A stretch of DNA of 64,000 nt from Gammaproteobacteria bacterium (lineage in GTDB: Bacteria; Pseudomonadota; Gammaproteobacteria; UBA4575): NCBI GenBank assembly GCA_965222615.1, contig CBDCUI010000008.1, positions 1,034,705-1,098,704 on the forward strand, given 5' to 3'. Made by a program: the position numbers and the translations under genes. The notes beneath the pieces are model-generated. The model was not told the origin of the DNA, did not search any database, and worked only from the letters and a program-made list of their open reading frames with translations. Position 1 is the first letter of the stretch. The number at the start of each line of letters is the position of its first letter. Positions 32,014 through 60,660 of the stretch are shown piece after piece.

Positions 32014-32045
32014 TTTAGTTTATATAGAATTTATGAGGACAAATT

Positions 32046-38802: not shown

Positions 38803-39165
38803 GAGCAACTGTAAGTAAAAAACTTGATCAATATTGTAGTTGGTAAGTTCAGCAAACCGCATTGCTTGATAATTTCATCGATATGCATTAACAGTATTAT
38901 TATGCCGTTTATGCGCAAAAATCTACCGTTCATCCTCAAGTTTTACTAAAGTAAGCCAAATCTTTATCAAATTATACTCATGTAAGCTGCACACTGCTTG
39001 TCATAAGAAGTAGTTTTTCTTAAGAAATAAGTAGTCTAATAAATAAAGTAATTTTAGCTTTATTGTCTTAGTGAAAAATTTATGTAGTCAGTAGTTATGG
39101 CTTTGTAAAGGCACTTAACAAAACAAAAATAAAGGCTTTATGTTATCCAGAGAGTTAAAAAGAAG

Positions 39166-39906: not shown

Positions 39907-39978
39907 TTTGTTAGGAGAATATCTAAAGCTTTTTTACTATGCTGATTAGATTAGAGTCATTATTTGTATAGATTATGA

Positions 39979-40500: not shown

Positions 40501-40566
40501 ATATAATAGTAGCTAGATTGGTCGATATACTTAATTTAACGTAGTTGGCATTAAATGTCATAGAAA

Positions 40567-41016
40567 ATGAAAGTTGAAATTCGAAATGCTCAATTTGATC
40601 CTTGTCAGGAAGTCTTGATTTATCAAGAAAATAATCTTTCCCCAGGTAAATTTGGAGCCGCAACAATCTTTATTGGAACTATGCGTGATTTCAATGAGGG
40701 TGATGCTGTAACAGCTATGAATCTAGAATATTATCCAGAAATGACACAGCAACATCTAGAACAAATCGCAAAAGAGGCGATGGAGAAATTTGATATTTTA
40801 GACTTATTTGTTTTGCATAGAGTGGGACAAATATTTCCTGGAAATCCTATTGTATGTGTTGCTGTATGGTCAGAACATCGTGCTGCGGCCTATGAAGCCA
40901 ATCGATTTATTATGGAAGATTTAAAAGTCAAAGCACCTTTTTGGAAACAAGAAACATTAGAGAAAAATACTAGTGGGAGGACTATGCGCTGGGTAGAAAA
41001 AAATACTCAGAACTAA
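40567..41016 (+). CDS. moaE: molybdopterin synthase catalytic subunit
   Basis: FIGTMRD, EYYPEM, HRVG, HRAAA, LKVKAPFWKQE. Confidence 0.93.
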   Translation: MKVEIRNAQFDPCQEVLIYQENNLSPGKFGAATIFIGTMRDFNEGDAVTAMNLEYYPEMTQQHLEQIAKEAMEKFDILDLFVLHRVGQIFPGNPIVCVAVWSEHRAAAYEANRFIMEDLKVKAPFWKQETLEKNTSGRTMRWVEKNTQN

Positions 41017-41029
41017 GTGAGTATAAAGC

Positions 41030-42316: not shown

Positions 42317-42391
42317 GTTGTACTTAACTAGTGGTGTTTCCTATATTATAAGTATAATTTTAGTTATAGTATGAACTTAAGATCTTACACT

Positions 42392-42540
42392 TAAGGAAAT
42401 TCTGATTTATCCTGCCTTAATTAATTTTTTTGGTCGTTAAAAAATGTTGAGAAACGCTCATGTATTCGTATATACACTCCACTTTCTCAACATTTTTTGC
42501 TTCATCTCAATCATTGCATTAATAAATCAGAACTTCCTAA
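42392..42540. mobile_element. palindromic MITE-like element, family A copy 2
   Basis: TAAGGAAATTCTGATTTAT..AATAAATCAGAACTTCCTAA; 16-bp stem AAAAAATGTTGAGAAA/TTTCTCAACATTTTTT; core CTCATGTAT..ATACACTCC. Confidence 0.8.
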
Positions 42541-42580
42541 ATCTAATATAATTAGAACTTTTGCCATATTCAATTTTTTA

Positions 42581-43597
42581 ATGTTGATACTAGATAAAAA
42601 GTCAATTTGTCGTAGCTTTTTCAAGCAATTAATTCTTGGATGCTTGATAAGCATAGCAGGTTTGACGAATGCCGAATGGCTTACTGAAGATGCAACCATT
42701 ATGGGCACTACAATCCGTGTTGAAGTTTGGCATCCAAAAGAAGAGGTGCGACAGAAAGGCGCTCAACTAGTGTTAGAAGAGATGGAACGTATCAATCGTC
42801 TAATGAGCCCATATATTGACCAAAGCCAGTTATCTAAAATAAATAAGTATGCACATGAAGGCCCCATTGAGATTGATAAAGATCTGTTTGCAGTAATTAA
42901 GAAATCTTTAGAAATTTCTGAGCTCACACAAGGGGCGTTTGATATCACATATGCTAGTGTAGGTCATATGTTCAATTATAGAAAAAAAATTAAGCCAAGT
43001 GATATTGAAATAGATCGGGCAAGAGAATTCATTAATTATAAAAATGTAATTTTAGATCATGAAAAATGCACCGTGTCGTTTGCAAAACAGGGAGTAAAGA
43101 TCGATCTAGGAGGGATTGCAAAGGGTTTTGCTGTCGATCAGGGAATTAATGCCCTAATAGATCTAGGTGTTGAACATGCGTTGGTTTCTGCGGGGGGAGA
43201 TACACGTATTTTAGGGGATCGATTAGGGAGGCCTTGGTTGGTAGGCATCCGCGATCCAGAAAACCCAGATGAAGTTGCTGCAATGTTGCCTTTACAAAAT
43301 GAAGCATTATCTACATCAGGAGACTACGAACGGTTTTTCATTGAAGACGGGGTTAAATATCATCACATTATTAATCCTGGTACGGGTAAATCAGCAAGTG
43401 GCTTACGCAGTGTTTCGATTTTGGGTACTGATTCAACTACAACTGACGCTCTTTCAACTAGTATTTTTATTTTAGGTGTAGATGAAGGACTCGCATTGCT
43501 AGATGAATTAGCAGATATAGAAGGTGTCATTATTGATCAAAAGGGGAAGCTTTATTATTCAGAAGGTTTAAAGAGAGAAGAAAAGCCATTGGAGTAA
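42581..43597 (+). CDS. apbE: FAD:protein FMN transferase
   Basis: IMGT, GAFDIT, DLGGIAKG, STSGDYER, HHIINP.TG, DALST. Start 42581 is inferred; the upstream ORF extension lies in the MITE. Confidence 0.93.
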   Translation: MLILDKKSICRSFFKQLILGCLISIAGLTNAEWLTEDATIMGTTIRVEVWHPKEEVRQKGAQLVLEEMERINRLMSPYIDQSQLSKINKYAHEGPIEIDKDLFAVIKKSLEISELTQGAFDITYASVGHMFNYRKKIKPSDIEIDRAREFINYKNVILDHEKCTVSFAKQGVKIDLGGIAKGFAVDQGINALIDLGVEHALVSAGGDTRILGDRLGRPWLVGIRDPENPDEVAAMLPLQNEALSTSGDYERFFIEDGVKYHHIINPGTGKSASGLRSVSILGTDSTTTDALSTSIFILGVDEGLALLDELADIEGVIIDQKGKLYYSEGLKREEKPLE

Positions 43598-43780
43598 AAT
43601 AACTCATTGAGTTTTGTGATGCAGTTCTCTTTACATTTTTTAACAATTTATCTCTATACCGTTTATCTGTTGTTCATGACCGTTTGTACTTCTGTCACGG
43701 TTACACATTTATAACTCAAGAATAATTCCGATACAGAGTCCTAGTTAAATCAAGGACATAGTGGAATTAAGTTTTATGTA

Positions 43781-43802
43781 TAAGTCACATGGTAGTGACT
43801 TA
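43781..43802. promoter_or_regulatory. perfect 8-6-8 palindrome, candidate operator
   Basis: TAAGTCAC-ATGGTA-GTGACTTA, ~55 bp upstream of the cytochrome gene start. Confidence 0.4.
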
Positions 43803-43855
43803 GTATAAAGTTAATTATGGAACGTATAGGGAAATTAAGTTTATTGGAGTTGGAT

Positions 43856-46786: not shown

Positions 46787-46807
46787 TAGTTAAAACAGAG
46801 GTTTGTC

Positions 46808-47317
46808 GTGAAACTATTGCGGCTGGTGCTACTAGCCGCAGTAGCACCAATAGGTCTTTTTCAAGGCTGTGACAGTACGTCTAATGAAGCACTACCAAAT
46901 AGTGGTGTAAGTCTGTGCATTAATCAGTACGAACAATGTATTGATCCTATTTTTCAAAATCTAACAAACACTGGTGCGACTTGTTCACAAGCAGGTTGTC
47001 ACAATTTACCAGGTGGTGTGCCAGCAGGTGGATTTGGTTTAAACCCCGGTGCTGCAATTGGTTCCACAGAAATGGTGATGAATTTTACAGCAGTGGAAGC
47101 CAGAACACTTAACAATAATTTATTACTCAATAAGGCAACAACGTCAAATGGTACTTCTCATGGCGGCGGACAGCAGCTTAGAGTAGGAGACGTTTGTTAC
47201 AACGCCATCGCAGAATGGCGGGGGGTATCAGCTCCTAGCGACGGATCACCGTGTAACTTAACGTCATTTTCATTATGCGTTAACAATGCTGCACTTGTTT
47301 CATCCTGCGGGCCGTAG
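46808..47317 (+). CDS. Cys-rich lipoprotein, putative cytochrome c (CX4CH)
   Basis: Lipobox-like FQGC; IDPIF...CSQAGCH; HGGG motif; 9 Cys. Confidence 0.6.
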   Translation: MKLLRLVLLAAVAPIGLFQGCDSTSNEALPNSGVSLCINQYEQCIDPIFQNLTNTGATCSQAGCHNLPGGVPAGGFGLNPGAAIGSTEMVMNFTAVEARTLNNNLLLNKATTSNGTSHGGGQQLRVGDVCYNAIAEWRGVSAPSDGSPCNLTSFSLCVNNAALVSSCGP

Positions 47318-47326
47318 GAAACCTAT

Positions 47327-48121
47327 ATGTTAAACACTAAAAAATATAAAAATTGCCACGCAACGACAAAGTATATAACTCACTTATTTTCGGTGTTTTT
47401 ATTTATTGCGTTAACAGTAATTCCATTTTCATCGGCATGGGCAGAAAAAGAATATCAGCGTTTAAAAATTGTTGATGCTTACATTGAGTTGCATACAGGG
47501 CCAGGAAGAGGCTATCCAATTTTTCATGTAGTTAAACGACATGATTGGGTTGAAGTTATTAAGCGTAAAACAGATTGGTTTAAAGTTAAAACTGATCGTG
47601 ATGTAACGGGGTGGGTAAGTCGCGAACAGATGGAGCGCACTTTAACAGTTGCAGGTATCCCAAAGTCTTTTAGAGATATTTTGTATGACGATTATTTGCA
47701 TCGACGTATAGAGTTTGGAATATCTGCTGGAGATTTTGATAGTGATCCAATCGTGTCAGCTAGGTTAGCATACAAATTTACAGAAAATATAGCTTTAGAG
47801 TTTCAAGTTTCAAAAGTTGCAGGCAAATTATCGAGCTCTGATATCTATGGTGTAAATTTGGTTTCTTTACCTTTTCCAGATTGGCGTCTTACACCACATT
47901 TTACAATCGGTTACGGACGTTTTGAAAACGAACCTAAAGGCGCCTTAATTCAACAAATTGATACTGAAGATGATTTTGCCAATCTTGGAATTGGGGCACG
48001 TTATTACTTAACGCGAAGATTCTTTTTACGTGCTGATTATCGTCGTTACATCGTTTTATCTGAAGATGATAGGAATGATGAATTTGATGAAATTAGTGCA
48101 GGGGTTTCATTTTTTTTCTAA
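47327..48121 (+). CDS. SH3-domain + outer-membrane beta-barrel protein
   Basis: Signal AWA; bacterial SH3 (LHTGPGRGYPI..DWFKV..GWV); barrel ending GVSFFF. Confidence 0.78.
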   Translation: MLNTKKYKNCHATTKYITHLFSVFLFIALTVIPFSSAWAEKEYQRLKIVDAYIELHTGPGRGYPIFHVVKRHDWVEVIKRKTDWFKVKTDRDVTGWVSREQMERTLTVAGIPKSFRDILYDDYLHRRIEFGISAGDFDSDPIVSARLAYKFTENIALEFQVSKVAGKLSSSDIYGVNLVSLPFPDWRLTPHFTIGYGRFENEPKGALIQQIDTEDDFANLGIGARYYLTRRFFLRADYRRYIVLSEDDRNDEFDEISAGVSFFF

Positions 48122-48144
48122 TGCTTAACTCATAGGGACATCTT

Positions 48145-48783
48145 ATGAAAATGCGATATTTAATATTTTTACTACTTGCTATCGTTTTACAGCCAGCATT
48201 TGCTGATGACGATGCGCCAGCACCTGAGTCTACACAGGAGCAAGTAATTGAGCCTGATATTTATCGTCGTGATATCAATGTGCCACGCATTGATACCGAG
48301 AATTTTGAAATCAGTGCTTACTACGGGGTTCTAGATGTCGAAGATTTTGGTACCGAGCCTGCTTATGGTCTCAGAGTTGCGTACCACATCACCGAAGATT
48401 TCTTCCTTGAAGGGGCCTATGGCATGTCAGAAACATCTGATGAGACTCTAGAAAACCTGACGACATTTAATATTTTGCGAGACGAAGACATTACTTATTA
48501 CAGTCTTTCAATTGGTTACAACATATTTCCCGGAGAAATTTTCTTAGGGCGAAATTTTGCAATGACTAGTAGTTTTTACCTGATGGCTGGAGTAGGCAAT
48601 GTGGAGTTTAACGAAGAAGATGAGTTTGCCTACAACGTAGGATTTGGTTTTAAGGTTCTGCCTACTGATTGGCTGTCTTTGCGTTTAGATGTACGAGATA
48701 TTGTTTATGAGACAGATCTTCTTGGTGATAACGAGTTTACCAATAATTTCGAAATAACAGCCAATGTAGGCGTTTTTTTCTAG
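48145..48783 (+). CDS. outer-membrane beta-barrel protein (GltA/B-like)
   Basis: Signal AFA; IDTENFEI, AYHITEDFFLE, GYNIFPGE; terminal F. Confidence 0.8.
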   Translation: MKMRYLIFLLLAIVLQPAFADDDAPAPESTQEQVIEPDIYRRDINVPRIDTENFEISAYYGVLDVEDFGTEPAYGLRVAYHITEDFFLEGAYGMSETSDETLENLTTFNILRDEDITYYSLSIGYNIFPGEIFLGRNFAMTSSFYLMAGVGNVEFNEEDEFAYNVGFGFKVLPTDWLSLRLDVRDIVYETDLLGDNEFTNNFEITANVGVFF

Positions 48784-48832
48784 GTTATATATTTACATTG
48801 AATAACACTAACTATTCGTGAAAGGGACAGAC

Positions 48833-49342
48833 ATGAATAAAAAATTAATTTTAGTTCAAGCATTCATTATAGCGTTATCACTTTGTGTAATAAGTGTCGT
48901 TACTTATGCAAATGTTAAAGCAGATGCTGCACCTGATTTTGTTTTGAAGAGCGCTTCCGGGCAAAACATCAGATTAAGTGAATTAAAAGGTAAAGTTGTA
49001 ATGTTAAATTTTTGGGCAACTTGGTGTGGCCCATGCGCAGAAGAGATTCCTCATCTAAACAAGCTACATGAATCATTAGATTCATACGACTTTGAGCTTT
49101 TAGGAATTAATTTAGATGAGGATCAAGCTAAAGCTTTGCATCTTGCTAGAAAACTTGACGTAAATTTCCCAGTTTTGTTTGATGATGAAAAAAATGTGAG
49201 TAAAAGTTTTTCAATTGATGCAATGCCCACGACAATCATAATTGATCGTAGTGGAAAAATACGACATGTCAACCGTGGATATAAAAAAGGTTATATAGAA
49301 CGTTATTACAGACAAATTCAAGCATTGCGTAGGGAACAATGA
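48833..49342 (+). CDS. TlpA disulfide reductase family protein
   Basis: APDF, LNFWATWCGPC, AMPTT. Confidence 0.92.
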   Translation: MNKKLILVQAFIIALSLCVISVVTYANVKADAAPDFVLKSASGQNIRLSELKGKVVMLNFWATWCGPCAEEIPHLNKLHESLDSYDFELLGINLDEDQAKALHLARKLDVNFPVLFDDEKNVSKSFSIDAMPTTIIIDRSGKIRHVNRGYKKGYIERYYRQIQALRREQ

Positions 49343-49611
49343 TGAGGAAGCACTTGTTAAAAAATTATTTATTAAAAGTCCTACTCATTATTTTTATTTT
49401 TGGATGTAGTTCATGTTCATCATTTAGGCTACCTAAAATTCCAAAAATTGAACCTTGGGTTGCGCCATATGAAAGAGAATACTTAGCAGATCCAATTATG
49501 AGTTTTAATAAAGACCCGCTTTCCAACAAATATAGGCAGCACGTTTTTAATACACGTGAAGGTGCTCGTGGAGCAGGGTATGCACATGGAGGCGGTTGCG
49601 GCTGTAATTAA
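49339..49611 (+). CDS. DUF4266-domain lipoprotein
   Basis: VAPYEREYLADPIM, REGARG, C-terminal GGGCGCN. Confidence 0.9.
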   Translation: MMRKHLLKNYLLKVLLIIFIFGCSSCSSFRLPKIPKIEPWVAPYEREYLADPIMSFNKDPLSNKYRQHVFNTREGARGAGYAHGGGCGCN

Positions 49612-49642
49612 TAGCATGTGTGAATATCTAGGAAAAATAATA

Positions 49643-50761
49643 ATGCTGAACAAAATATTCGTCGGAATCGTTTTGTTTAATATTTGTTTGCCTACTAGTG
49701 TGATTGCGGCAGTACTGCCAGATGAACGAGCTGATGCAGGTTATCACTACTATGATGGCGATGGAGTGGAAGTAGATGGGCCTACTTTTCTAATTCGTAA
49801 AAATTTCGCAAGTAAATTTTCTGTTTATGGAAGCTATCATCACGATAGTATCAGTGGTGCATCACCTGACGTATTAGCAGGTGCAAGTAGATACAGTGAA
49901 GACCGTGATGAATTTACAATCGGTGGTGCTTATTTGCGTGATAACACGATTTTAGATTTATCCTACACCCATAGCGATGAAGATGATTATCAGTCTGATA
50001 CCGTAAATTTTGATATTTCGCATGAAATGTTTGGTGCCTTAACTACGGTTAACATCGGTGCATCGATTGGTCAGGATGATGTTGAGCGAAATGATTTATC
50101 AAGTTTTTCAGAAGATTTAGATCGATACTTGTTCCGTGCCGGTGTCTCACAAGTTTTAACCAAGACTTCAGTTTTAGGCTTTGACTATGAAGCCACAGTA
50201 GAAGAGGGATTTCTCAATAATCCATACCGGTTTGTATTTGTAAACGGAGTGTCCCTTGGCAGTGGCTCAGAGCGCTATCCCCGTACCCGAACAGGCCAAG
50301 CCTTCGCACTACGAGGTATTAAATATTGGCAACATCGGGCCTCAACTTCGCTCGGTTATCGGTTTTATAGGGACACTTGGGATATTCGCGCGCATACCAT
50401 AGACCTAAATTACTCACAATATATTGGAAATCAATGGGTTGCGGATATTTATGGACGTTATTACAGCCAGGATGAGGCAGATTTTTTCAATGACAATTTC
50501 AGCACAGCCATGCGTTATATGGCGCGAGATAAAGAGTTGAGTTCATTTGATAGTTATTCAATAGGAGCTCGTGTCCGTTATGACTTATTTAAGGATTACA
50601 AATTTTTACGTACCGCATCAATTAATCTCGCAGTGGAATATTTGGACTATGACTACGACGATTATTCAGGAATTAAATCTGTTGCAGACACAGCGAGCTT
50701 GGGAAGTGGCTATTCGTTTGATGCAACGACAATTCAATTTTATTTTTCAGTTTGGTACTAA
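49643..50761 (+). CDS. DUF3570-family outer-membrane beta-barrel, predicted flavinylation substrate
   Basis: VLPDERAD, DSISGAS, GFLNNPYR, ERYPRTR, YRFYRDTW, ARDKELS; terminal aromatic residues. Confidence 0.88.
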   Translation: MLNKIFVGIVLFNICLPTSVIAAVLPDERADAGYHYYDGDGVEVDGPTFLIRKNFASKFSVYGSYHHDSISGASPDVLAGASRYSEDRDEFTIGGAYLRDNTILDLSYTHSDEDDYQSDTVNFDISHEMFGALTTVNIGASIGQDDVERNDLSSFSEDLDRYLFRAGVSQVLTKTSVLGFDYEATVEEGFLNNPYRFVFVNGVSLGSGSERYPRTRTGQAFALRGIKYWQHRASTSLGYRFYRDTWDIRAHTIDLNYSQYIGNQWVADIYGRYYSQDEADFFNDNFSTAMRYMARDKELSSFDSYSIGARVRYDLFKDYKFLRTASINLAVEYLDYDYDDYSGIKSVADTASLGSGYSFDATTIQFYFSVWY

Positions 50762-50796
50762 AAATGTAATTAGAAGATTGTTTATGGAGATCGAAC

Positions 50797-51345
50797 ATGT
50801 ATAGAAAATTAATTTTATTCATATGTTTTTCGATATTGAGTTATATGAGTGCAGCAGTTGCCGACATTGATAACTCTAAAGTGAATGAAGAACATAACTT
50901 TCAAAACCTAGATCAAGAGATACAAACTTTAAAACAGGAAGTTTTAGAACTAAATCGCGATCTCTATATACTTGAAGAGGAATTGTTATACCCATCCAAT
51001 ACGCAGGTAGCGGTATACGTATCTGTTGATGTTGGCGACTTTTTTGACTTGGATTCTGTACAAGTCACATTGAATGAAAAAATTGTTGCAAATTATCTTT
51101 ACACTGAGCGTGAAGTAGATGCCTTATTGCGTGGTGGTGTGCATCAAATCTATATTGGGAATTTGCCGTCTGGAGAACATGAACTGGTAGCGTATTTTGT
51201 TGGGCGTGGGCCAAAGGGTAGAGATTTTAAACGTGGAGCAAATCGAATTATTGATAAAGGTTTGGGGGCAAAGTATGTAGAGCTGAAAATTACAGATCGA
51301 ACTCCTAAGCATCAACCCGACTTTATTGTAAAAGAATGGGAATAA
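50797..51345 (+). CDS. exported hypothetical protein (coiled coil + beta domain)
   Basis: Signal AVA; heptad LDQEIQTLKQEVLELNRDL; beta-rich C-terminus; in operon. Confidence 0.75.
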   Translation: MYRKLILFICFSILSYMSAAVADIDNSKVNEEHNFQNLDQEIQTLKQEVLELNRDLYILEEELLYPSNTQVAVYVSVDVGDFFDLDSVQVTLNEKIVANYLYTEREVDALLRGGVHQIYIGNLPSGEHELVAYFVGRGPKGRDFKRGANRIIDKGLGAKYVELKITDRTPKHQPDFIVKEWE

Positions 51346-51352
51346 GAAAAAG

Positions 51353-53317
51353 ATGTTAATAGCTACTTTAAAAAAAGTGGTCATAACTTCTAAAGCCAAG
51401 AAGGTCTTGGCTTTTTGCGTATCTATGCTTGTATTTTTCTCGAGTACTTCTTATGCAAATTTACAGCAGCCTAAAGTTGTTAAAGATCTACATTATGGAG
51501 AGGTACTGTTTCATTTTTATCAAGAAGACTATTTCACATCCATTGTACATCTTTTGGCGGCACGTGAATTGAATCGAGTATCTCACCATATACCGGAAGA
51601 TGAGCTTTTACTTGGCGGTATCGATCTTTCTTATGGTTTACACAAAGAGGCATCTAGAATTTTCGATAAGCTATTGCAGGGGAATGTTACCGAAACGATT
51701 AAAAATAGAGCCTATTACTTTCTTGCAAAAATATATTTTCAAAGAGGATATTTAAATGAAGCAGATGGGTTTTTGCAAAATATTCGAGGACCCGTCCAAG
51801 AAAATATATTTGGTGATTTGAAACTATTAATGGGCCAGGTATATCTCGCGCAAGGCAAGTACGACAATGCAATCTCCAGCTTGAGTAAGTGGAAAGGGCC
51901 TAAAGATTATCGCCAATATGCTGACTACAATCTTGGCATTGCCTTTACAAAAAAAGGAAACGTAGACAAGGGAATCGAATATCTAAAAGACGTAGGAAAG
52001 TCCAAAGCTAAAACTGAATCGATTCGTACCCTTAGAGATAAGGCCAACCTCGCTTCGGGTCTGGCCTTGATTCAAAACGATAGGCCGGTGGAAGCAACTA
52101 AATATTTAGAAAAAGTGCGTCTACAGGGTTTGTACTCAAATATGGCGTTGCTCGGAATTGGCTGGGCCAATACAGAAGCGAATAAACATGATGCTGCATT
52201 AGGGCCTTTGATGGAGTTGCGTAATCGCAGTGCCTATCATCCTGAAGTACAAGAAGGAATTCTAGCGCTAGCGTATGCCTATAACGAAATGGGCTTAAGT
52301 GGCCGTGCCGTTAAGGCCTATGAGCGAGCTGCAGATATCTATTTAAATGAAGCACAAGAACTTGCGACCTCGGCAAAAGTGATAGAAGAAGGCGCTTTGG
52401 TGAAGGCACTATTAGACCGTACCAAAGGTGGTCCACAAATGGGATGGTTCTGGTCTTTAAGAGAGATACCAGAAATACCCGAAGTCAAATATTTCACAGA
52501 GCTTTTGGCTGAGCACGAGTTTCATGAAGCATTAAAAAATTTTCGTGATCTACTGTATTTAAAAAAGAACTTGGAATATTGGCACGAAAATATCCCGATC
52601 TTTATGACGATGTTGGATACAAGAAAAGCAAGATATGAAAAGTATTTGCCATTAGTTAAAAAAAGGCTAAATGAACTAGATATTAGCCAATTACAAAATT
52701 TACAAAACAATCTCACAAGCACGCTTGATGAAATTGAAAGAGGAAATGAATATCTACGGCTTGCTACGCCAGAGGAAAAACAAAAGCTTTTCCAAATTGA
52801 AAATCTATCGGAAAAACTTGAATTGCTAGAGCAAAATGATCTTGAAAATGAGCAGCTAGTACAAATGCGCGAAAAACTTGCCTTAATGGAAGGCGTTGTG
52901 CATTGGCAAATACATAGCGAATATATCGCCAGGAAATGGGAGCACAGACAAGATGTAGATGGCATCGATCAACATTTATTGGTAACACCTGGAAAGAGTG
53001 TATCTATAAAAGAGGCGATAAATGAAAGCGTTAAAAATTTTGATGAATTTGAACTACGCATATTAGCATTACAAAAAGAAATAAAACGCCTTATTCCCAT
53101 TGTAGATCGAGTATTTGAAAAGCAATCTCGATATTTAGAGCATGTAGCAGTTAAAGAGCTTAAACGTCGTGAAAATATATTGACCGGCTATGAGAAACAT
53201 GCACGATTTGCGCTGGCTTCTGCTTACGATCGAGCTGCATCATCTATAAATATGAATGACGAAGTTGCACCAAAAGAATCCAAGCAAAAGAAATCTAGGG
53301 GTTGGTGGCTGTGGTAA
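51353..53317 (+). CDS. exported tetratricopeptide-repeat protein (GltC-like)
   Basis: Signal SYA; TPR helices (AYYFLAK, ADYNLGIA, ALLGIGWA); coiled-coil C-terminus. Confidence 0.8.
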   Translation: MLIATLKKVVITSKAKKVLAFCVSMLVFFSSTSYANLQQPKVVKDLHYGEVLFHFYQEDYFTSIVHLLAARELNRVSHHIPEDELLLGGIDLSYGLHKEASRIFDKLLQGNVTETIKNRAYYFLAKIYFQRGYLNEADGFLQNIRGPVQENIFGDLKLLMGQVYLAQGKYDNAISSLSKWKGPKDYRQYADYNLGIAFTKKGNVDKGIEYLKDVGKSKAKTESIRTLRDKANLASGLALIQNDRPVEATKYLEKVRLQGLYSNMALLGIGWANTEANKHDAALGPLMELRNRSAYHPEVQEGILALAYAYNEMGLSGRAVKAYERAADIYLNEAQELATSAKVIEEGALVKALLDRTKGGPQMGWFWSLREIPEIPEVKYFTELLAEHEFHEALKNFRDLLYLKKNLEYWHENIPIFMTMLDTRKARYEKYLPLVKKRLNELDISQLQNLQNNLTSTLDEIERGNEYLRLATPEEKQKLFQIENLSEKLELLEQNDLENEQLVQMREKLALMEGVVHWQIHSEYIARKWEHRQDVDGIDQHLLVTPGKSVSIKEAINESVKNFDEFELRILALQKEIKRLIPIVDRVFEKQSRYLEHVAVKELKRRENILTGYEKHARFALASAYDRAASSINMNDEVAPKESKQKKSRGWWLW

Positions 53318-56112
53318 ACGTGCTATACAAAATTTTTGTAATAGTCACAATCACCATAGTACTTGTGTCATGTGGAAGTTTTGGCGGCTCAAGAAAAGAT
53401 ACGATCGGCAGTATTAGCAAAAATCGTGTCGTAGTAAAAGAAGATGTGCCCGTTAAAAGCAGTCGTAGCAAAGCCATTAATCAATATCGAAAATTGTTAG
53501 ATGAAGATCCTAAAGACGTAAATCCGGAAGTGATGCGTAGGCTAGGCGATTTACGCATGGAAGAAAGTGAAGATTACCTAGCGGATCAAGTAAAACTCCC
53601 AGATTCAGCCACTTTTGCTGAAACGATTAAACTTTATGAAGACGTATTGGCAAATCATCCTTCCTATGCGGGCAGGGATCGTGTGTTATATCAGCTTTCA
53701 CGCGCGTACGAACTTAGTGAGCAATATGAAAAAGCTTTAGGGGCGTTGGATCAATTAGTATATGAATATCCAGACTCAAAATATTACACAGAAACTCAAT
53801 TTAGGCGCGCAGAAATATTATTTGTAGAAAAACAATATGCAGCCGCAGAAGCAGCATACGAATCCGTAATTAAGCAAGGTCCGGAAAGTGACTATTACAT
53901 TCATTCTTTGTATAAACACGGGTGGTCTCACTTTAAACAAGTCGATTACGATTACGCTATGCCTTCGTTTAATAAGGTACTAGATGAGATTCTTAAGACA
54001 GGTGTAGAAGAAGAACAAATTGCACAATTGTCACGTGCAGACCAAGAGCTTGTTGATGACACACTACGTGCAACGGGATTGAGTTTTGGTTATTTGGGTG
54101 GACCAGACGAAGTTTCGAATTTTTATAATGAAACGGGTCGTAAACCCTATGAAATACTTGTTTATGAAAGGCTTGGCGAACAATACTTAGAAAAAAGACG
54201 TTGGAGTGATGCTGCGAATACCTACCGCGAATTTGTTGAAACGCATAAGTTCAGTCCTAAAGCACCACTTTTTCAAATTAAATCAATCGAAGCCTATCAA
54301 AAAGGCGAGTTTCCTTCTGAGGTGCTGCGTGCTAAGAAACAATTCGTTGTTGACTATAATTTAAAGTCAGAATATTGGGCACATAACGATATTCAAGCGT
54401 CAGAAGACATTGTTGTCCTGCTTAAATCTACAATTACAGATCTAGCTAAACACTATCATTCAGTGGCGCAAAAAGAACGTAAGCCAAAAGAATATTATGA
54501 TGAAGCGGCAACATGGTATCACGCCTATCTGGAGTCTTTCCCGCAAGATGAAAAAGCACCCGAGATGAATTTTTATCTTGCTGAGGTGCTGTATGAGACC
54601 AAGCAATACAATAGTGCTGTATCTGAATATGAAAAAACTGCTTACGGATATAAAAAACATCCCAAGTCTGCAGAAGCGGGTTATGCTGCAATCATTGCCT
54701 ATAATGAGTGGTTAAAATCAGAAAAAACGCCATCCAATCACAATGTAATTAAAACTCAGCTCATCGATAGTAGCTTTAGATTTTCTCAAAACTTTCCAAA
54801 TCACCCTGAAGTGCCCAAAGTGATGACAGTTTCCGCTGAAGAACTCTATGCGCGCAAAGATTATGCTCGTGCCAGTGAAGCATCAAATATCGTAATTACA
54901 AAATATCCAAATGCAGATAAAAAGTTACAGCTTTCGGCCTGGACAGTCACGGCACATTCCGCTTTTGATACAGGTGAATATGCAACATCTGAAAAGGCAT
55001 ATGTACAGGCATTAGCACGTGCGCAGGCAAAGGACGAATTGCGTGACCCTTTAAAACAAAGATTAGCAGCTTCAGTTTATAAACAAGGTGAAGCGAGCAA
55101 AAAAGCAGGTGATACCGAAGCAGCAGTGCAACACTACTTACGTGTAGGTCAAGTGGTGCCAGATGCAGAAATACGCGCAACTGCACAGTATGATGCTTCG
55201 GCCGCTTTACTTGAGTTAGAAGATTGGGACCGTGCATCTACTACTCTAGAAGATTTTCGTCATCGCTTTCCCAAACATGAGTTGCAAGATGAAGTTACTC
55301 GTAAATTAGCGGTGTCTTATGATAAAGGTGGTCAACATTTAAAGGCTGCAAAAGAATACGAAACAATTGGAGATGGAACCAAAGACGTTGCGTTGCAACG
55401 CGAAGCGCGATTACAAGCTGCCGAGTTATATAACAAAGGTGGTGATTTTTATGGAGCAGAAAAAAGCTTAATTACCTATGTGGAAAAACATCCAAGACCA
55501 GTCGAGCCTGCAATGGAAGCCATGCATAAACTAGTGACCATGTATGCTGAACGTAATTACCTGGATGATAAATTAACGTGGCAAGAAAAAATCATCGATG
55601 CAGATGCTAAAGCCGGTGCAGAACGTAGTGCTAGAACAAAATTTTTAGCGGCAAATGCTACGTTGGATTTAGCAAAACTTGAATATGATGCATATAGTCA
55701 AATATTTTTACTACATCCGCTGAAGAAAAATCTAAAACGCAAAAAGAAACAAATGCAAGTTGCATTAGATGTTTATGAAGCAGCAAGCCGTTACAAAGTG
55801 GAACAAGTTACTACAGCTGCAACCTATTGGACTGCGCGTATATATCAAGATTTTAGTAAGGCACTTATGGAATCAGATCGGCCAGCAAATCTCTCTGCAG
55901 AAGAATTAGATCAATATAATATTTTACTTGAAGAACAGGCATTCCCATTTGAAGAGCAGGCTATTGAGACTTATGAATTAAATGTTGCTCGTATATCAGA
56001 TGGCGTATATGACGAGTGGGTCAAAAAAAGTATGACCGAGTTAGCAATTTTAGCACCTGCACAATATGTTAAAGCAGAAAGGATTGAGGATCATGTGCAG
56101 ATTATTTATTAG
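53302..56112 (+). CDS. large TPR lipoprotein (GltD/AgmU-like)
   Basis: Lipobox LVSC; many TPRs; C-terminal RPANLSAEELDQYNILLEEQAFPFEEQAI. Confidence 0.8.
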   Translation: MVAVVNVLYKIFVIVTITIVLVSCGSFGGSRKDTIGSISKNRVVVKEDVPVKSSRSKAINQYRKLLDEDPKDVNPEVMRRLGDLRMEESEDYLADQVKLPDSATFAETIKLYEDVLANHPSYAGRDRVLYQLSRAYELSEQYEKALGALDQLVYEYPDSKYYTETQFRRAEILFVEKQYAAAEAAYESVIKQGPESDYYIHSLYKHGWSHFKQVDYDYAMPSFNKVLDEILKTGVEEEQIAQLSRADQELVDDTLRATGLSFGYLGGPDEVSNFYNETGRKPYEILVYERLGEQYLEKRRWSDAANTYREFVETHKFSPKAPLFQIKSIEAYQKGEFPSEVLRAKKQFVVDYNLKSEYWAHNDIQASEDIVVLLKSTITDLAKHYHSVAQKERKPKEYYDEAATWYHAYLESFPQDEKAPEMNFYLAEVLYETKQYNSAVSEYEKTAYGYKKHPKSAEAGYAAIIAYNEWLKSEKTPSNHNVIKTQLIDSSFRFSQNFPNHPEVPKVMTVSAEELYARKDYARASEASNIVITKYPNADKKLQLSAWTVTAHSAFDTGEYATSEKAYVQALARAQAKDELRDPLKQRLAASVYKQGEASKKAGDTEAAVQHYLRVGQVVPDAEIRATAQYDASAALLELEDWDRASTTLEDFRHRFPKHELQDEVTRKLAVSYDKGGQHLKAAKEYETIGDGTKDVALQREARLQAAELYNKGGDFYGAEKSLITYVEKHPRPVEPAMEAMHKLVTMYAERNYLDDKLTWQEKIIDADAKAGAERSARTKFLAANATLDLAKLEYDAYSQIFLLHPLKKNLKRKKKQMQVALDVYEAASRYKVEQVTTAATYWTARIYQDFSKALMESDRPANLSAEELDQYNILLEEQAFPFEEQAIETYELNVARISDGVYDEWVKKSMTELAILAPAQYVKAERIEDHVQIIY

Positions 56113-56719
56113 TTTATTTATTTGTTGTTTTATGTTGGTTGTTGCAAGTTGTGCAAGTGTGCCACAACTTAAAAAGTATACAATCACTTCTAAATCAAAT
56201 ACAAAAACAGAAAAATCCGCTGAAGCTGTACAGCCAACCTTTAAGGTAAGCGAAAAAACTGCAACTGCTTATAACGCTGCATTAAAGCATATGCGTACTA
56301 AAAACTATGATGTCGCTATAAGTGAGATGAAAAAAGTGGCAGGCATGGACAAACGTATCTCAGGACCATGGGTGAATATTGGACTTGCACATAAGGAATT
56401 GGGAGAAGCAAAAAAAGCCAAGGCTTCATTTGAAAAAGCTTTATCGATCAATCCAAAAAACCCTTATGCACTTAATTATTTAGCCATTATGCATCGAGAA
56501 GAAGGTGATTTTAGTAAAGCGGAGGGTCTTTATAGAAAAGCGCTTTCCGCACATCCGGATTATCAGAACGCTCATCTGAATCTGGGTATTTTGTGTGATC
56601 TGTATTTAAGGAAAATAGACTGTGCGATAGAGCATTATCAAAAGTACTTGAATTTGAGCGGTGGGCAAGACAAACAAGTAACCGCTTGGGTAGCGCAATT
56701 AAAAAAGCAGGGTAGCTAA
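56093..56719 (+). CDS. TPR lipoprotein (GltE/AglT-like)
   Basis: Lipobox VASC; TPRs with AHLNLGILCDLYL..A..HYQKYL. Confidence 0.82.
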   Translation: MCRLFISLFICCFMLVVASCASVPQLKKYTITSKSNTKTEKSAEAVQPTFKVSEKTATAYNAALKHMRTKNYDVAISEMKKVAGMDKRISGPWVNIGLAHKELGEAKKAKASFEKALSINPKNPYALNYLAIMHREEGDFSKAEGLYRKALSAHPDYQNAHLNLGILCDLYLRKIDCAIEHYQKYLNLSGGQDKQVTAWVAQLKKQGS

Positions 56720-56724
56720 GCGTT

Positions 56725-57003
56725 ATGAAAAATGTATGGAATATAAAAAGGATTATTTTTCTAATTTTCCTATTGTTGTTTTGTCAAGCAGCTATTGCAG
56801 AAGAAGCAACACAAGAGTTGGATGGGATTTCAGTAATTGGTAATCGCGAATTACCAAAAGCACTTGTAATCGTACCGTGGAAAGCACCAGAGCCTGGTGA
56901 TTTAGATGGTCAACCTTTGCAAAGTTTAATTGATGAGGTGCTAGGCCCTATTGATAGGGACGTGCACAAAAGAAAAGTTAGTTATTACGAACAATATAAC
57001 TAG
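56725..57003 (+). CDS. small exported protein (GltF-like)
   Basis: Signal AIA; LDGISVIGNRELPKALVIVPWK; lies between the TPR gene and exbB. Confidence 0.7.
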   Translation: MKNVWNIKRIIFLIFLLLFCQAAIAEEATQELDGISVIGNRELPKALVIVPWKAPEPGDLDGQPLQSLIDEVLGPIDRDVHKRKVSYYEQYN

Positions 57004-57044
57004 CAGTGTAAATATTTGTAGCGTTAACGCTAAGGAGCAAGACA

Positions 57045-57794
57045 ATGGAAGAGACAGGGCAAGAAATCATCTCAGCAACTGATGGTTCGCAAGTAATGGG
57101 AGCCGAAATGGTTGATGCCATGATGGCAACCGAACCGCAAAGTATGAGTCTGTATGAAACAGTAGTTTCATTTTTTCAATCGGGTGGGCCATTTATGATC
57201 CCGATTGCGATCGTATTGGCAATTGGTATTGCTATCGCGATTGAACGGTATCTATACCTATCTGCATCACGTACTCGCAATCAACTTGCATGGAATAAAT
57301 TACAATCGGCATTACAAAGCGGCAATCTATCTCAAGCGATAGGATTTGCTGAGAAATCAAAAGCGGCAGTTAGCCGTATTATTCATTATGGATTTATGCG
57401 TGCAAAAACTTCTCGTCGACGTGATGACGTGGAAATTGCTATGGAAGAAGGCTTGATGGAAGTTTTACCTAAATTAGAAAAGCGGACTCACTATTTAGCA
57501 ACTTTTGCCAATATTGCGACTTTATTAGGTTTGCTTGGAACCATTATTGGTTTAATAGGCGCATTTACATCGATCGCAGAGGCAAATCCTGCTGATAAGG
57601 CAGATATTCTATCTGCAAATATCTCGGTTGCGATGAATACGACTGCATTTGGTTTGATGGTCGGTATTCCACTTTTACTCATTCATGCTTGGCTTACAAC
57701 TAAAACTACAGAAATTGTAGATAGTTTAGAAATGGCATCAGTGAAGGTGTTGAACTTTGTAACCGAGCGCAAGCCTGCAGAAGCTGCAGCATAA
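57045..57794 (+). CDS. MotA/TolQ/ExbB proton channel (AglR-like)
   Basis: GGPFM..AIER, NIATLLGLLGTIIGLI, ISVAMNTTAFGLMVGIP. Confidence 0.92.
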   Translation: MEETGQEIISATDGSQVMGAEMVDAMMATEPQSMSLYETVVSFFQSGGPFMIPIAIVLAIGIAIAIERYLYLSASRTRNQLAWNKLQSALQSGNLSQAIGFAEKSKAAVSRIIHYGFMRAKTSRRRDDVEIAMEEGLMEVLPKLEKRTHYLATFANIATLLGLLGTIIGLIGAFTSIAEANPADKADILSANISVAMNTTAFGLMVGIPLLLIHAWLTTKTTEIVDSLEMASVKVLNFVTERKPAEAAA

Positions 57795-57806
57795 GGTTGT
57801 ACAAAC

Positions 57807-58304
57807 ATGATTACTAGAAGACGACTACGCAAACGCACCGCCAAGCCCGAAGCGGAGCTTAGTGTAACGGCATTTATGAATTTAATGGTAATTCTTGTGC
57901 CTTTCTTATTAATCATGTTGGTGTTTGCAAAAATTACAATTTTAGAATTGCATTTGCCGGCACAATCTAATGTTGCGAAGCCAGACGAAAGAAAACTTGC
58001 GCTAGAAGTGATTATTAAAAGTGATCAACTGATTGTGCAAGATAAAAATCGTGGTCGTTTAACTGTGATTGAAAAGTCTGATGAAGGTTATGATGTTTTG
58101 ACACTTTCTCAGTTTTTGCAAGCAGTTAAATATAAGTATCCAGATACCATAGCAGCCTCTATCTTGCTCGAGCCTGAAATTGAGTATTCAAACTTAGTAA
58201 TGGTGATGGATGCAGTGCGTGCAATCGATATCGAAAATGAAGACGGTAGTTTTACGCGTGCAGAGCTTTTTCCAGAAATTTCTTTGGGTGATGCGCCCGT
58301 TTAA
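57807..58304 (+). CDS. ExbD/TolR-family protein, Asn variant
   Basis: Single TM SVTAFMNLMVILVPFLL; periplasmic Y..LVMVMDAVR. Confidence 0.88.
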   Translation: MITRRRLRKRTAKPEAELSVTAFMNLMVILVPFLLIMLVFAKITILELHLPAQSNVAKPDERKLALEVIIKSDQLIVQDKNRGRLTVIEKSDEGYDVLTLSQFLQAVKYKYPDTIAASILLEPEIEYSNLVMVMDAVRAIDIENEDGSFTRAELFPEISLGDAPV

Positions 58305-58320
58305 GTAGAAAGGATAAATA

Positions 58321-58830
58321 ATGTCAGTAGGTACAAGAAGATTAGCGCGCATGGAACGTCAGCACGGGCGTTCTAAAAAACAACCACCCTTTAATATTGT
58401 TTCGTTAATGGATATTTTTACTATCCTTGTGTTTTTCTTGTTAGTAAATACTTCTGACATCACGCCTTTGCCCAACCCTAAAGGCATTGAAATGCCTGAG
58501 TCGATTGCAGAGACCACCCCACATGAATCAGTTGTAGTCATGCTTAGCAATGAAAATGTTCTTTTACAAGGTGAAGAAGTTATTTCTGTAGAAGAAGTAA
58601 TGAAAGAGGATTCACAAGAACTCGCAATCTTTGTCGCAAAACTGAAACAACTTGCCGATGAAGTCGTACCGGTTTCAGAAGAGGACCCAGAACGTGAAGT
58701 AACGATTATGGGTGATAAAGAAGTGCCATATAGAGTATTGGATCGCGTCATGCGTATTTGTGCAAATTACGCAGGGTTTTCCAAAATTTCATTATCTGTA
58801 ATTCAAAAAGATACCCAACTAGAGTCATAA
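58321..58830 (+). CDS. ExbD/TolR-family protein, Asp variant
   Basis: NIVSLMDIFTILVFFLL; IMGDKEVPY..L.RVM. Confidence 0.9.
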   Translation: MSVGTRRLARMERQHGRSKKQPPFNIVSLMDIFTILVFFLLVNTSDITPLPNPKGIEMPESIAETTPHESVVVMLSNENVLLQGEEVISVEEVMKEDSQELAIFVAKLKQLADEVVPVSEEDPEREVTIMGDKEVPYRVLDRVMRICANYAGFSKISLSVIQKDTQLES

Positions 58831-58831
58831 C

Positions 58832-59824
58832 ATGTCTGCAGTAATTGCCAATTCATATTTTCCACACGATTTACCCTGGACGATACAACCAGAAACTCAG
58901 GAACGTTTTAGAAAACTTCTGCGTTGGTCGTTAGCCAGTGTTCTTTTTCTAGCACTGTTATTTACTGTTTTACCATTACCTGAACCAGAAGAACCAGAGA
59001 AAGAAGAACCCAAGCAATTGGTAAAGCTCATACCAAAAGTAGAAATTCCACCACCACCGCCACCTAAGGTTAAGCCAATTGAAACTAAGGTAAAGCCTAA
59101 ACCCAAAAAACAGGTAAAACCGAAGCCGAAACCGCAACCAAAGAAAGAACCAAGAAAAACGGCAAAGGCGCCTAAAAAGGCTCCAGTGAAAACAAAATCA
59201 GCTAAAGAAATTGCTGCGGCATCAGGTTTGCTGGCGATGAAGGATGATTTAGCCGACCTCAAAAACGATTCATCTGCGAAAACTCTCGGTGAGCGTTCGT
59301 TAAATAGAAGCGGTTCACAAGGTAAAACAGTGCAACGCTCTTTAGTAACCAAGAATTATGGCAAAGCCAGTGGTGGTATTAATACGGCGAGTTTAAGTAA
59401 AGACACAGGTGGTAATGGTTTAGGAGGGCGTGCTGCGGGTCAGGTTGGAGGTGTGCCTGGTTTAGGCGGTGCGGGCGGCACTGGTAGTGGCGGCGGATCA
59501 GGATCTGGAGATGGTGACGGTACGGGCTACGGGAAAACCCGAGACCTAGAAAAAATTCAAATTACATTTGATCGCAATAAAAGCAGTCTTTTTACAATGT
59601 ATAACCGCGAACTTCGAAAAGATGCAAGCCTACAAGGAAAAGTGGTGCTAAATATTACTATTGCACCTTCAGGAAAAGTGACTTCATGCAGCATTGTTTC
59701 TAGTGAATTAGGTAATCCAGCATTAGAAAGTAAATTGTTACAGAGAGTAAAACTTATTAATTTTGGTGCAGAAGATGTCCCACCGTTTACTTTTAATTAC
59801 CCTATCGATTTTTACCCAGTTTAG
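58832..59824 (+). CDS. TonB-like protein with AgmX/PglI-type C-terminal domain (GltG-like)
   Basis: N-terminal TM, Pro/Lys-rich linker, Gly-rich region, TonB_C (YNRELRKDASLQGKVV..IAPSGKV..YPIDF). Confidence 0.88.
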   Translation: MSAVIANSYFPHDLPWTIQPETQERFRKLLRWSLASVLFLALLFTVLPLPEPEEPEKEEPKQLVKLIPKVEIPPPPPPKVKPIETKVKPKPKKQVKPKPKPQPKKEPRKTAKAPKKAPVKTKSAKEIAAASGLLAMKDDLADLKNDSSAKTLGERSLNRSGSQGKTVQRSLVTKNYGKASGGINTASLSKDTGGNGLGGRAAGQVGGVPGLGGAGGTGSGGGSGSGDGDGTGYGKTRDLEKIQITFDRNKSSLFTMYNRELRKDASLQGKVVLNITIAPSGKVTSCSIVSSELGNPALESKLLQRVKLINFGAEDVPPFTFNYPIDFYPV

Positions 59825-60449
59825 TACTAGGTATTCAATACTGGCGATCAGTATTATTCTTTTCTGTTCGGGCTCACATGCAATCCAACAAGATTGGGAG
59901 CTAAGTGGTACCTTTATAATAGGGAAGCAAGCGCAAGCCTTTTTTGTAAATAAAGACGGGACTGAACTGAGTTTAACCAAAGGTGAAATTATCCAAGGTT
60001 GTCAGTTAGTAGATGTACTAAGTGAAGCTGTAAAGCTACATTGTGAGGAAGAAGTTCATACCCTATTACTGCGCAATAGTGTAGGGGATATACACAAACA
60101 GGCCCAATTTCAAAGCACTCAGGTAAGCAAGCAAACGATTTTCTTACCGAAAGATGAGTTGAAAGATTATGCAAATCAGCGACAACGTATCGCCTCGGAA
60201 ATTGGATTTTTACCACTACTTGAAGATGAAAAAGTTATAGGATTTACAATATCTAAAGTTTCACCTGGCACTCCAGTGTCAAAATTAGGCTTATACAATG
60301 GCGATGTAATTACCTCGATCAATGGGGTAGCGGCGTCTAATACTAGCCAGTTTCTTGAAGCCATCAACGAGCTGCCATCTGCATCACAGGTGTCTATCCA
60401 TGTAGATCGTTATGGCCAGAACTTAGCTTATACATATATATTTGAATGA
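59775..60449 (+). CDS. GspC-like exported protein with PDZ domain
   Basis: HR-like domain LSGTFI..AFF..GEII.G..LVDV; PDZ GFTI..LGLYNGDVITSING..V.R.G. Start uncertain. Confidence 0.68.
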   Translation: MSHRLLLITLSIFTQFSTRYSILAISIILFCSGSHAIQQDWELSGTFIIGKQAQAFFVNKDGTELSLTKGEIIQGCQLVDVLSEAVKLHCEEEVHTLLLRNSVGDIHKQAQFQSTQVSKQTIFLPKDELKDYANQRQRIASEIGFLPLLEDEKVIGFTISKVSPGTPVSKLGLYNGDVITSINGVAASNTSQFLEAINELPSASQVSIHVDRYGQNLAYTYIFE

Positions 60450-60660
60450 ATTTTAAGTATTCACTTATAAAGTTATTTATAAACAAATGGTTATAAGCTT
60501 TAATTAATTTAGATTCTTATATAAACGTAAATAACATTAACGCAGACGTTTTTATTCAAAATAATCGGGTCTGTCATGTACGTTTCACACGTTATTACAG
60601 TCTATTGGAGTACAATAGATTAAAGAATTACGGCCGTATTTTCGTTAGGAGGAATCTTTC

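Follow-up and report, generated by a model that had tools for sequence, protein, structure and literature searches.

A stretch of 64,000 nucleotides (nt) of gammaproteobacterial DNA, here called the window (lineage UBA4575, assembly GCA_965222615.1, contig CBDCUI010000008.1, positions 1,034,705 to 1,098,704), carries in one place the genes of a flavinylation-associated redox module and those of a proton-driven motor related to the Agl-Glt and Nfs machines of Myxococcus, which raises the question of whether the two sets serve one system of the cell envelope or are neighbours by chance. According to the list of open reading frames, the genes concerned form a run of 18 on the plus strand at window positions 42497-60449 (numbered g01 to g18, Table 1), tightly packed, neighbours overlapping by up to 62 nt or standing at most 41 nt apart, the exception being the 219 nt that separate apbE from the haem gene g02. 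A previous description of this DNA made without database searches (the sequence-only reading) had counted 17 genes, although the components it listed also add up to 18. Its statement that the genes lie on one strand in tight or overlapping succession was borne out by the coordinates, and the domains it had named were recovered by Pfam and NCBIfam profile searches, with the correction that lipobox-like motifs are also found in the ApbE protein g01 and in two tetratricopeptide repeat (TPR) proteins, g11 (936 residues) and g12 (217 residues). The answer favoured here, with a probability of roughly one half, is that the 18 genes would encode a single conserved envelope system, namely a motor-assisted outer-membrane redox platform. 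This reading is drawn from sequence comparison and builds on the gene content of the cluster, its collinearity with nfsA-G and the evolutionary linkage of its two halves, all of which were observed directly.

From g04 onwards, the gene order is barrel, barrel, C, D, E, small protein and G, that is, the order of nfsA-G with two insertions, one formed by Tlp, DUF4266, DUF3570 and g09 after the second barrel, and the other by ExbB, ExbD and ExbD ahead of G. The sequence-only reading had already placed the redox module inside a Glt-like gene order, and this stands; what it overlooked was that the two small barrels g04 and g05 make the window order collinear with nfsA-G. With the TIGR04565 OMP_myx_plus model (cut-off 60), g05 scores 149 bits and g04 49 bits, and g05 presents in addition a conserved N-terminal extension ahead of the barrel, with the segment VIxPxIxRR...IDxExFE; the public names of its 120 listed relatives are generic only. 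The three TPR proteins follow each other in the order of GltC, GltD and GltE, although g12 does not reach gliding_GltE, the only specific model for any of the three (44 bits against a cut-off of 225). Because the window order equals that of nfsA-G with insertions, the H half of the cluster (haem lipoprotein, SH3 barrel, barrel, Tlp, DUF4266 and DUF3570) can be read as the redox-active outer-membrane platform of a Glt/Nfs-type machine, the M half consisting of g09, the three TPR proteins, the small protein, ExbB, the two ExbD and the TonB_C protein.

The likeness to the Myxococcus machines extends beyond gene order. As in Agl-Glt and Nfs, the cluster combines a channel of the ExbB type with a pair of ExbD-type proteins and with a TonB_C protein whose Pro-rich linker precedes a domain passing the AgmX/PglI model; as in Nfs, the three TPR proteins (two of them lipoproteins) are encoded in one locus together with the barrels, the small protein and G, in the same order. 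Unlike in the Agl-Glt and Nfs loci, the motor genes here form part of the locus, two further proteins (g09 and g18, a PDZ protein) are present, and the outer-membrane half holds flavin, thiol and haem proteins that do not figure in the published descriptions of Glt and Nfs used here; moreover, in contrast with GltG as portrayed in the Agl-Glt structural model, g17 has about 30 cytoplasmic residues and no FHA domains. That an ExbB-ExbD2-TonB_C-TPR-barrel set is the core of these machines, with functionally unassigned homologues in gammaproteobacteria, had been stated in the sequence-only reading and agrees with two reports, which describe in gammaproteobacteria a core complex (aglRQS, gltC/D/E/G) and assign it no function (Luciano 2011, PMC3169522; Wartel 2013, PMC3858216); a preprint on CglB likewise presents this core complex as conserved and its function as unknown. 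According to the same preprint, surface exposure of CglB is controlled by the Glt outer-membrane proteins, and in the 2025 structural model of Agl-Glt the barrels GltA, GltB and GltH are depicted as holding CglB, a propeller-VWA lipoprotein, while an N-terminal strand of GltB docks on GltC and the small GltF bridges to the TonB domain of GltG (PMC11761067). In the window, a beta-propeller lipoprotein, g02, is encoded beside the two barrels g04 and g05.

The association of the two halves was then followed in a sample of 400 genomes drawn evenly from the class of the window (one additional genome could not be scored), in which counts are descriptive and do not amount to a statistical test, since the genomes are related and hence not independent. 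The gene for the 936-residue Glt-like TPR protein (g11 type) was present in 78 of the 400 genomes and DUF3570 in 91 of 401 (a figure that includes G039, flagged as unpublished), with 63 genomes having both. When DUF3570 copies were split by score into canonical (at least 160 bits, whole Pfam profile matched) and divergent (80-159 bits), 58 of the 61 divergent copies were found in genomes bearing the TPR gene, 39 of the 61 lying within 30 kilobases (kb) of it on the same contig, whereas none of the 54 canonical copies was near it. All 39 copies at this distance thus belong to the divergent subfamily (82-154 bits), and the 39 linked genomes span 27 family codes, as read from the genome family codes. 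HZS_alpha, the family of the middle domain of g02, was detected in 50 of the 400 genomes, 48 of which carry the motor TPR gene, and in 41 it lies at most 10 kb from a divergent DUF3570. The pairing of the two halves is no peculiarity of this locus but recurs across many gammaproteobacteria, and the divergent DUF3570 is a separate subfamily dedicated to the motor system, a fact that had escaped the sequence-only reading. The association that the latter proposed between redox and motor modules survived this comparison, in that both are found together and keep their linkage under several gene orders.

These orders were mapped with the window proteins in 30 regions fetched from 27 genomes, to which the window was added as the 31st. 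The H and M halves are collinear in 11 regions, one of which is the window; in eight they diverge from each other at a distance of 5-8 kb, and in three they share a strand and are 9-17 kb apart. One region was too short to tell, and in the remaining eight the M half stands alone, its flanks showing no shared alternative partner. ApbE moves between the halves, as in the 11 split regions it adjoins the M half in eight and the H half in two, and was not seen in one. One genome per species was scanned with an alignment of 12 g09 sequences, which returned at least 545 stretches encoding a relative, of which the best 80 were mapped; these were picked by likeness to linked g09 copies and are hence biased to the linked type. 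In 58 of these loci the sequence extended 8 kb or more upstream of g09; 48 of the 58 have an H gene and 57 some redox gene. Across the 80 loci, the gene directly upstream of g09 is TlpA-like in 48, DUF3570 in 10 and ApbE in seven. The motor-type genes share a single locus in the window, in the 30 fetched regions and in the 80 further loci, and the maps of the latter confine g03 and g18 to the window-type gene order. The records that carry the motor locus are labelled, for example, Steroidobacteraceae, Woeseiaceae and Chromatiales (common sediment and soil gammaproteobacteria). Among the cultured bacteria, Peristeroidobacter agariperforans KA5-B and Lentisalinibacter sediminis C23 have the motor locus, with a DUF3570 of the divergent type at another place in each genome.

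Mapping also revealed, between the split halves, a third set of three conserved genes that belongs to the system and had been overlooked by the sequence-only reading: a monohaem protein, a dihaem LamG lipoprotein and a protein with a twin-arginine (TAT) signal. In most other genomes this set lies between or beside the H and M halves, and in many loci labelled Steroidobacteraceae it runs directly into the M half (genes 1, 2 and 3, then Tlp, g09 and the rest). In the window genome it is found on a different contig (G000:C9:340237-345146, minus strand; L149 8238-13147), where its LamG haem lipoprotein has one CXXCH, and the window clade carries in its stead the genes of the CX4CH and PDZ proteins. 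The TAT protein (P3) had no Pfam match even at E = 5, and an Atlas lead to DUF1501 (score 0.92, 158 shared features) is to be taken as a lead only. A canonical Tlp-DUF4266-DUF3570-ApbE set is present on a third contig of the window genome (G000:C7:697822-700856; L150 7823-10857), divergent from an adjoining DUF1501 protein and a 1610-residue PSD4/PSCyt3 protein. Given the third set on the one hand and the neighbours of the canonical set on the other, both kinds of DUF3570 accompany planctomycete-type haem-motif proteins.

The DUF3570 protein g08 of the redox half was modelled as a 16-strand barrel with a predicted local distance difference test (pLDDT) score of 86; the solved folds nearest to it are FadL, OmpG and, among polysaccharide porins, PelB, BcsC and AlgE (template-modelling, TM, scores of 0.45-0.53). 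Two tandem serine motifs, D-S-I-S-G-A-S and D-V-L-A-G-A-S in the window, align with positions in a canonical DUF3570 copy; across orthologues S75 is invariant and S83 at least 90% conserved, with an Asp six residues upstream of each, and in the model both motifs sit in an 11-residue loop between strands 3 and 4. Outer-membrane barrels usually have both termini in the periplasm. As the long loops of the g08 model are all at odd positions and its termini are taken as periplasmic, the serine loop probably either lies on the outer face or folds back into the lumen.

That ApbE flavinylates a DUF3570 protein of Chlorobium was shown by experiment, and clusters that join ApbE and DUF3570 genes with thioredoxin-like and DUF4266 genes are described in the same survey as having an uncertain function (Meheust 2021, PMC8238504), in line with the sequence-only reading, which had recognised a known flavinylation-associated module. 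All four gene types are present in the window cluster, with the C-terminal CXC of DUF4266 and the two tandem serine motifs, as in the modules of that survey. Unlike part of those modules the cluster has no DsbD, the single DsbD_TM match of the genome being on another contig (the survey counts 316 clusters without DsbD), and its thioredoxin is of the AhpC-TSA/Redoxin type, not PF13899 as in the modules there described. A further difference from canonical modules is that the window DUF3570 belongs to the separate subfamily found with the motor, which scores 82-154 bits against at least 160. The ApbE orthologues in other loci match g01 with 285-500 bits, compared with 125 bits for the second ApbE of the window genome, and the DUF4266 lipoprotein g07, with about 50 mature residues, ends in a GGGCGCN that is invariant in 23 of 23 sequences.

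The haem lipoprotein g02 aligns collinearly with the hydrazine synthase alpha subunit (5c2v_A) through the propeller, the middle-domain CXXCH, a second CXXCH and the C-terminus, and shares with it the domain order of propeller, CXXCH middle domain and C-terminal haem domain. It differs from that subunit in being a lipoprotein (20 of the 21 family members have a lipobox) and in the one extra CXXCH of the window clade, which has three where most relatives have two; the beta and gamma subunits of hydrazine synthase were not seen in the cluster, to which this search was limited. Among the top hits related to hydrazine synthase alpha in a 2025 survey, none is given a confirmed experimental function in the portion of that source considered here (PMC12758564).

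In the motor half, g11 scores above the cut-offs of two models, YbgF/CpoB (106.4 bits against 90.1) and BamD (84.2 bits against 81.4); in the comparison with TonB-ExbBD and Tol-Pal systems, no other equivalog model reached its cut-off. The two ExbD-type proteins, which score 45 and 60 bits with PF02472, differ at the membrane Asp position, g16 reading LMD (Asp) and g15 NLM (Asn), each at least 90% conserved in 28 homologues. In Pfam and NCBIfam, g09 (182 residues) and g13 (92 residues) have no assigned family. The g09 protein, whose family counts 1591 representative clusters, models as a transthyretin/Ig-like sandwich preceded by a long helix; for the sandwich, fold comparison gives a generic match only; one relative (P0262, 695 residues) is fused to a TPR region, and no thioredoxin fusion was seen among the longer relatives examined. 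The automatic cluster name of this family, AraC family transcriptional regulator, does not fit the signal peptide, the long helix and the Ig-like fold.

In the mechanism proposed for the redox platform, the ExbB/ExbD/ExbD proton channel would drive the GltG-like protein g17, and the TPR proteins in the GltC/D/E positions would bridge the periplasm. By analogy with the Myxococcus machine, g04 and g05 are taken as counterparts of GltA and GltB, with the g05 extension possibly docking on the TPR scaffold, and the beta-propeller haem lipoprotein g02 may occupy the place that CglB has in Myxococcus. The g08 barrel could carry up to two flavin mononucleotides (FMN), attached by the ApbE of the cluster in a loop that faces outwards or sits in the lumen, and the outer-membrane half would further include the CXC lipoprotein DUF4266 and g02. 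Electrons might pass from DsbD, encoded elsewhere, to the TlpA-like thioredoxin, then to the CXC of DUF4266 and from there to the FMN and haem groups of the outer membrane, from which they would reach a substrate at or beyond this membrane. The motor itself would assemble, expose or gate the redox platform, and would not move the cell. The more specific proposal that the core complex energises and scaffolds a new outer-membrane electron conduit, in which a 16-strand barrel with covalent FMN in its lumen or outer vestibule would be fed by a thiol relay (DsbD, TlpA, DUF4266 CXC) and connected to surface haem lipoproteins, a Ton/Tol-type motor assembling or gating the whole, is put forward as a speculative extension that is rather unlikely in this precise form.

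Several observations weigh against the redox platform. Both modules are present but on separate contigs in 24 genomes, mostly fragmented assemblies, and the motor can exist without the redox half, since 15 of the 78 motor-bearing genomes have no DUF3570 and eight of the 31 mapped regions are motor-only. In the tree of the 936-residue TPR protein, linked and motor-only copies were not set apart, this being a quick and poorly resolved tree of 29 rows from which G176 and G397 were omitted as split or partial. As for g08, the place of its loop on the outer side depends on the usual topology rule for barrels, and its flavinylation is not certain, because most orthologues read SSAS/TSAS (second motif T.AS) and not [S/T]GA[S/T]. 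The motor-only regions and motor genomes without DUF3570, together with the canonical DUF3570 sets that occur alone, could also be taken as signs that the cluster is nothing but two independent operons brought together by chance. Such a coincidence is very improbable, considering that the linkage persists through three gene orders and 27 family codes, that a dedicated DUF3570 subfamily accompanies the motor and that ApbE and TlpA genes switch between the halves.

If the halves form one system, its purpose may nonetheless differ from the one favoured here. TlpA/ResA-type thioredoxins are helpers of cytochrome c maturation. The redox genes could accordingly serve only to mature a cargo, with the motor and the small barrels acting as a display or secretion machine that exposes haem lipoproteins (g02, and elsewhere the dihaem LamG protein), and with thioredoxin, ApbE, DUF3570 and DUF4266 carrying no electrons to a substrate. 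The control of CglB exposure by Glt outer-membrane proteins described above, the nearly universal lipobox of the g02 family, the position of g02 next to the barrels and the ResA-like match of g06 (124 bits, under the cut-off) all speak for this possibility. It is nevertheless held to be doubtful, as HZS_alpha was undetected in 10 of the 57 genomes with a divergent DUF3570, which makes the barrel a closer companion of the motor than the haem protein is; in addition, canonical DUF3570/DUF4266/thioredoxin/ApbE sets exist without such cargo, and a flavinylated barrel is hard to account for as a maturation factor. The presence of ExbB, ExbD and a TonB_C domain suggests instead an uptake role, with a TonB-like motor energising the import of a substrate, such as a metal, that needs reduction at the outer membrane, and flavinylation clusters are tied to iron assimilation in the part of the flavinylation survey cited here (Meheust 2021, PMC8238504). 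The cluster resembles TonB-ExbBD and Tol-Pal in its proton-channel stator, periplasm-spanning TonB_C protein, beta-propeller protein and YbgF-like TPR protein. Import is, however, quite unlikely: unlike in TonB-ExbBD systems, none of the 18 proteins matches Plug or TonB_dep_Rec and DUF3570 models with 16 strands and not 22, a TonB-dependent receptor or an inner-membrane transporter was seen neither in the cluster nor among the mapped families of the 31 regions and 80 loci, the TonB_C protein belongs to the AgmX/PglI type and is accompanied by TPR proteins in the GltC/D/E positions, and a Fur-box scan upstream was no better than elsewhere in the window (best match 12/19). The probability is similarly small for a Tol-Pal-like paralogue devoted to envelope maintenance, which would repair outer-membrane components or keep them reduced. 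The YbgF/CpoB and BamD matches of g11, the PD40/TolB-type propeller of g02 and the general outer-membrane type of the small barrels would fit this role, but the TolQ, TolR and TolB models gave 60/221, 32/127 and 24/343 bits (score/cut-off), TolA was also far below its cut-off, no Pal or Pal-like peptidoglycan-binding domain was found in the cluster, and the gene order follows nfs/glt, not tol-pal. The interpretation offered by the sequence-only reading, a single proton-driven system that would export, fold or display a surface cargo or import a substrate requiring reduction, is on the whole partly supported.

Porin-cytochrome conduits such as MtrCAB offer a comparison for the redox platform that concerns working only: under the favoured reading, a barrel, redox cofactors and a redox lipoprotein would likewise conduct electrons through the outer membrane. 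MtrCAB is not known to be related in sequence, the barrel cofactor would be covalent FMN and not a decahaem, and a proton-driven motor would be attached. In the literature, a full-text search for DUF3570 or DUF4266 yielded nothing on motors, and among the matches listed for flavinylation or ApbE combined with Glt terms, none contained either redox term. ExbB, ExbD and tetratricopeptide are unmentioned in the main text of the flavinylation survey as far as it was covered, and TonB and the outer membrane appear there only in its section on PepSY and siderophore uptake (Meheust 2021, PMC8238504). Within these full-text searches, the link between the redox module and a Glt-type motor is not in print.

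The significance of the locus lies in the pairing of two widespread sets without assigned function, the DUF3570 module and the gammaproteobacterial Glt/Nfs core, a dedicated branch of the first being regularly associated with the second. This limits where a function for either may be sought, as the outer-membrane partner of the motor would be redox-active and the flavoprotein would be a predicted outer-membrane barrel attached to a proton-driven machine. If it is true that this barrel carries FMN across the outer membrane, it would represent a flavin-based counterpart of the porin-cytochrome conduits. As to the origin of the Myxococcus machine, an ancestral form that had paired barrels together with a beta-propeller lipoprotein could be older than gliding.

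Table 1. Genes of the window cluster (window coordinates) and of the third gene set
Gene	Product	Position	Strand	Features
g01	ApbE-type FAD (flavin adenine dinucleotide):protein FMN transferase	42497..43597	+	PF02424, 272 bits; likely start 42581; lipobox-like LILGC
g02	HzsA-like haem lipoprotein, 989 residues	43817..46786	+	PD40 beta-propeller; HZS_alpha middle domain (69 bits); three CXXCH
g03	Small CX4CH protein, 169 residues	46808..47317	+	One CX4CH; nine Cys; lipobox-like FQGC
g04	SH3 + small outer-membrane barrel	47327..48121	+	SH3_3, OMP_b-brl; C-terminus ...VSFFF
g05	Small outer-membrane barrel	48145..48783	+	TIGR04565 OMP_myx_plus, 149 bits (cut-off 60)
g06	TlpA/ResA-like thioredoxin	48818..49342	+	CGPC motif; Pfam/NCBIfam
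g07	DUF4266 lipoprotein	49339..49611	+	PF14086, 78 bits; C-terminal GGGCGCN
g08	DUF3570, divergent subfamily	49556..50761	+	139 bits; likely start 49643; motifs SGAS, AGAS; 16-strand barrel model
g09	Exported protein, 182 residues, first motor-half gene	50797..51345	+	Long helix then transthyretin/Ig-like sandwich (model); no Pfam family
g10	TPR protein, 654 residues, GltC/NfsC position	51353..53317	+	Pfam/NCBIfam
g11	TPR lipoprotein, 936 residues, GltD/NfsD position	53302..56112	+	TPR models; lipobox-like motif
g12	TPR lipoprotein, 217 residues, GltE/NfsE position	56066..56719	+	gliding_GltE 44 bits (cut-off 225); lipobox-like motif
g13	Small exported protein, 92 residues, GltF position	56725..57003	+	Conserved GN.ELPK.L.IVPWK
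g14	ExbB/TolQ/AglR-type proton channel	57045..57794	+	PF01618 MotA_ExbB, 97 bits
g15	ExbD/TolR-type	57807..58304	+	PF02472; Asn at conserved membrane Asp position
g16	ExbD/TolR-type	58321..58830	+	PF02472; membrane Asp kept (LMD)
g17	GltG-like: membrane anchor, Pro/Lys-rich + Gly-rich linker, TonB_C	58832..59824	+	NF033768 61.9 bits (cut-off 40); PF03544 24.8 bits (cut-off 24.6)
g18	Membrane-anchored PDZ protein, GspC-like	59763..60449	+	GspC-like matches under cut-off
Third set, gene 1	Monohaem protein			Weak PSD2 match in some members
Third set, gene 2	Dihaem lipoprotein			Laminin_G_3 domain
Third set, gene 3	Protein of about 550 residues			Twin-arginine signal; no Pfam family

The cluster is flanked upstream by moeA (minus strand, 41030-42316) and downstream by a fadE-type acyl-CoA dehydrogenase gene (60661-63147), both identified with Pfam and NCBIfam and unrelated to it. 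Its base composition is not distinct from that of the remaining window, a scan for promoters and terminators found nothing exceeding shuffled sequences (16 terminator-like sites against 14.4 expected), and Rfam gave no match across window 41000-61000. The spacer between moeA and apbE (42391-42541) contains nested inverted repeats (20 nt at 90% and 16 nt at 100%) with a predicted RNA fold of -38.8 kcal/mol (z -7) that corresponds to no Rfam family. Dozens of full or partial copies of this repeat (84-97% identity) occur in the same genome and none upstream of apbE in relatives; it looks like a dispersed palindromic element, similar to miniature inverted-repeat transposable elements (MITE) or repetitive extragenic palindromic (REP) sequences, and not like a regulator of the cluster.

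Molybdenum-cofactor genes (mobB, mobA, moaA, MoCF_biosynth, moaE and moeA) are found upstream of the cluster at 11233-12378 and 37705-42316, with no link to it in the other mapped genomes. An IS481-type transposase gene with rve and helix-turn-helix domains lies at 19682-20659 on the minus strand. In the Agl-Glt structural model, VWA is the adhesin domain of Myxococcus CglB (PMC11761067), and the motor-only cluster of genome G080 has as convergent neighbours an 816-residue VWA protein and a 571-residue protein of no family (L045 9869-14036). The window itself encodes at 26577-33488 a 752-residue VWA protein, a DnaJ-domain protein and an unassigned open reading frame on the minus strand, followed by two paralogous DUF4139 proteins on the plus strand.

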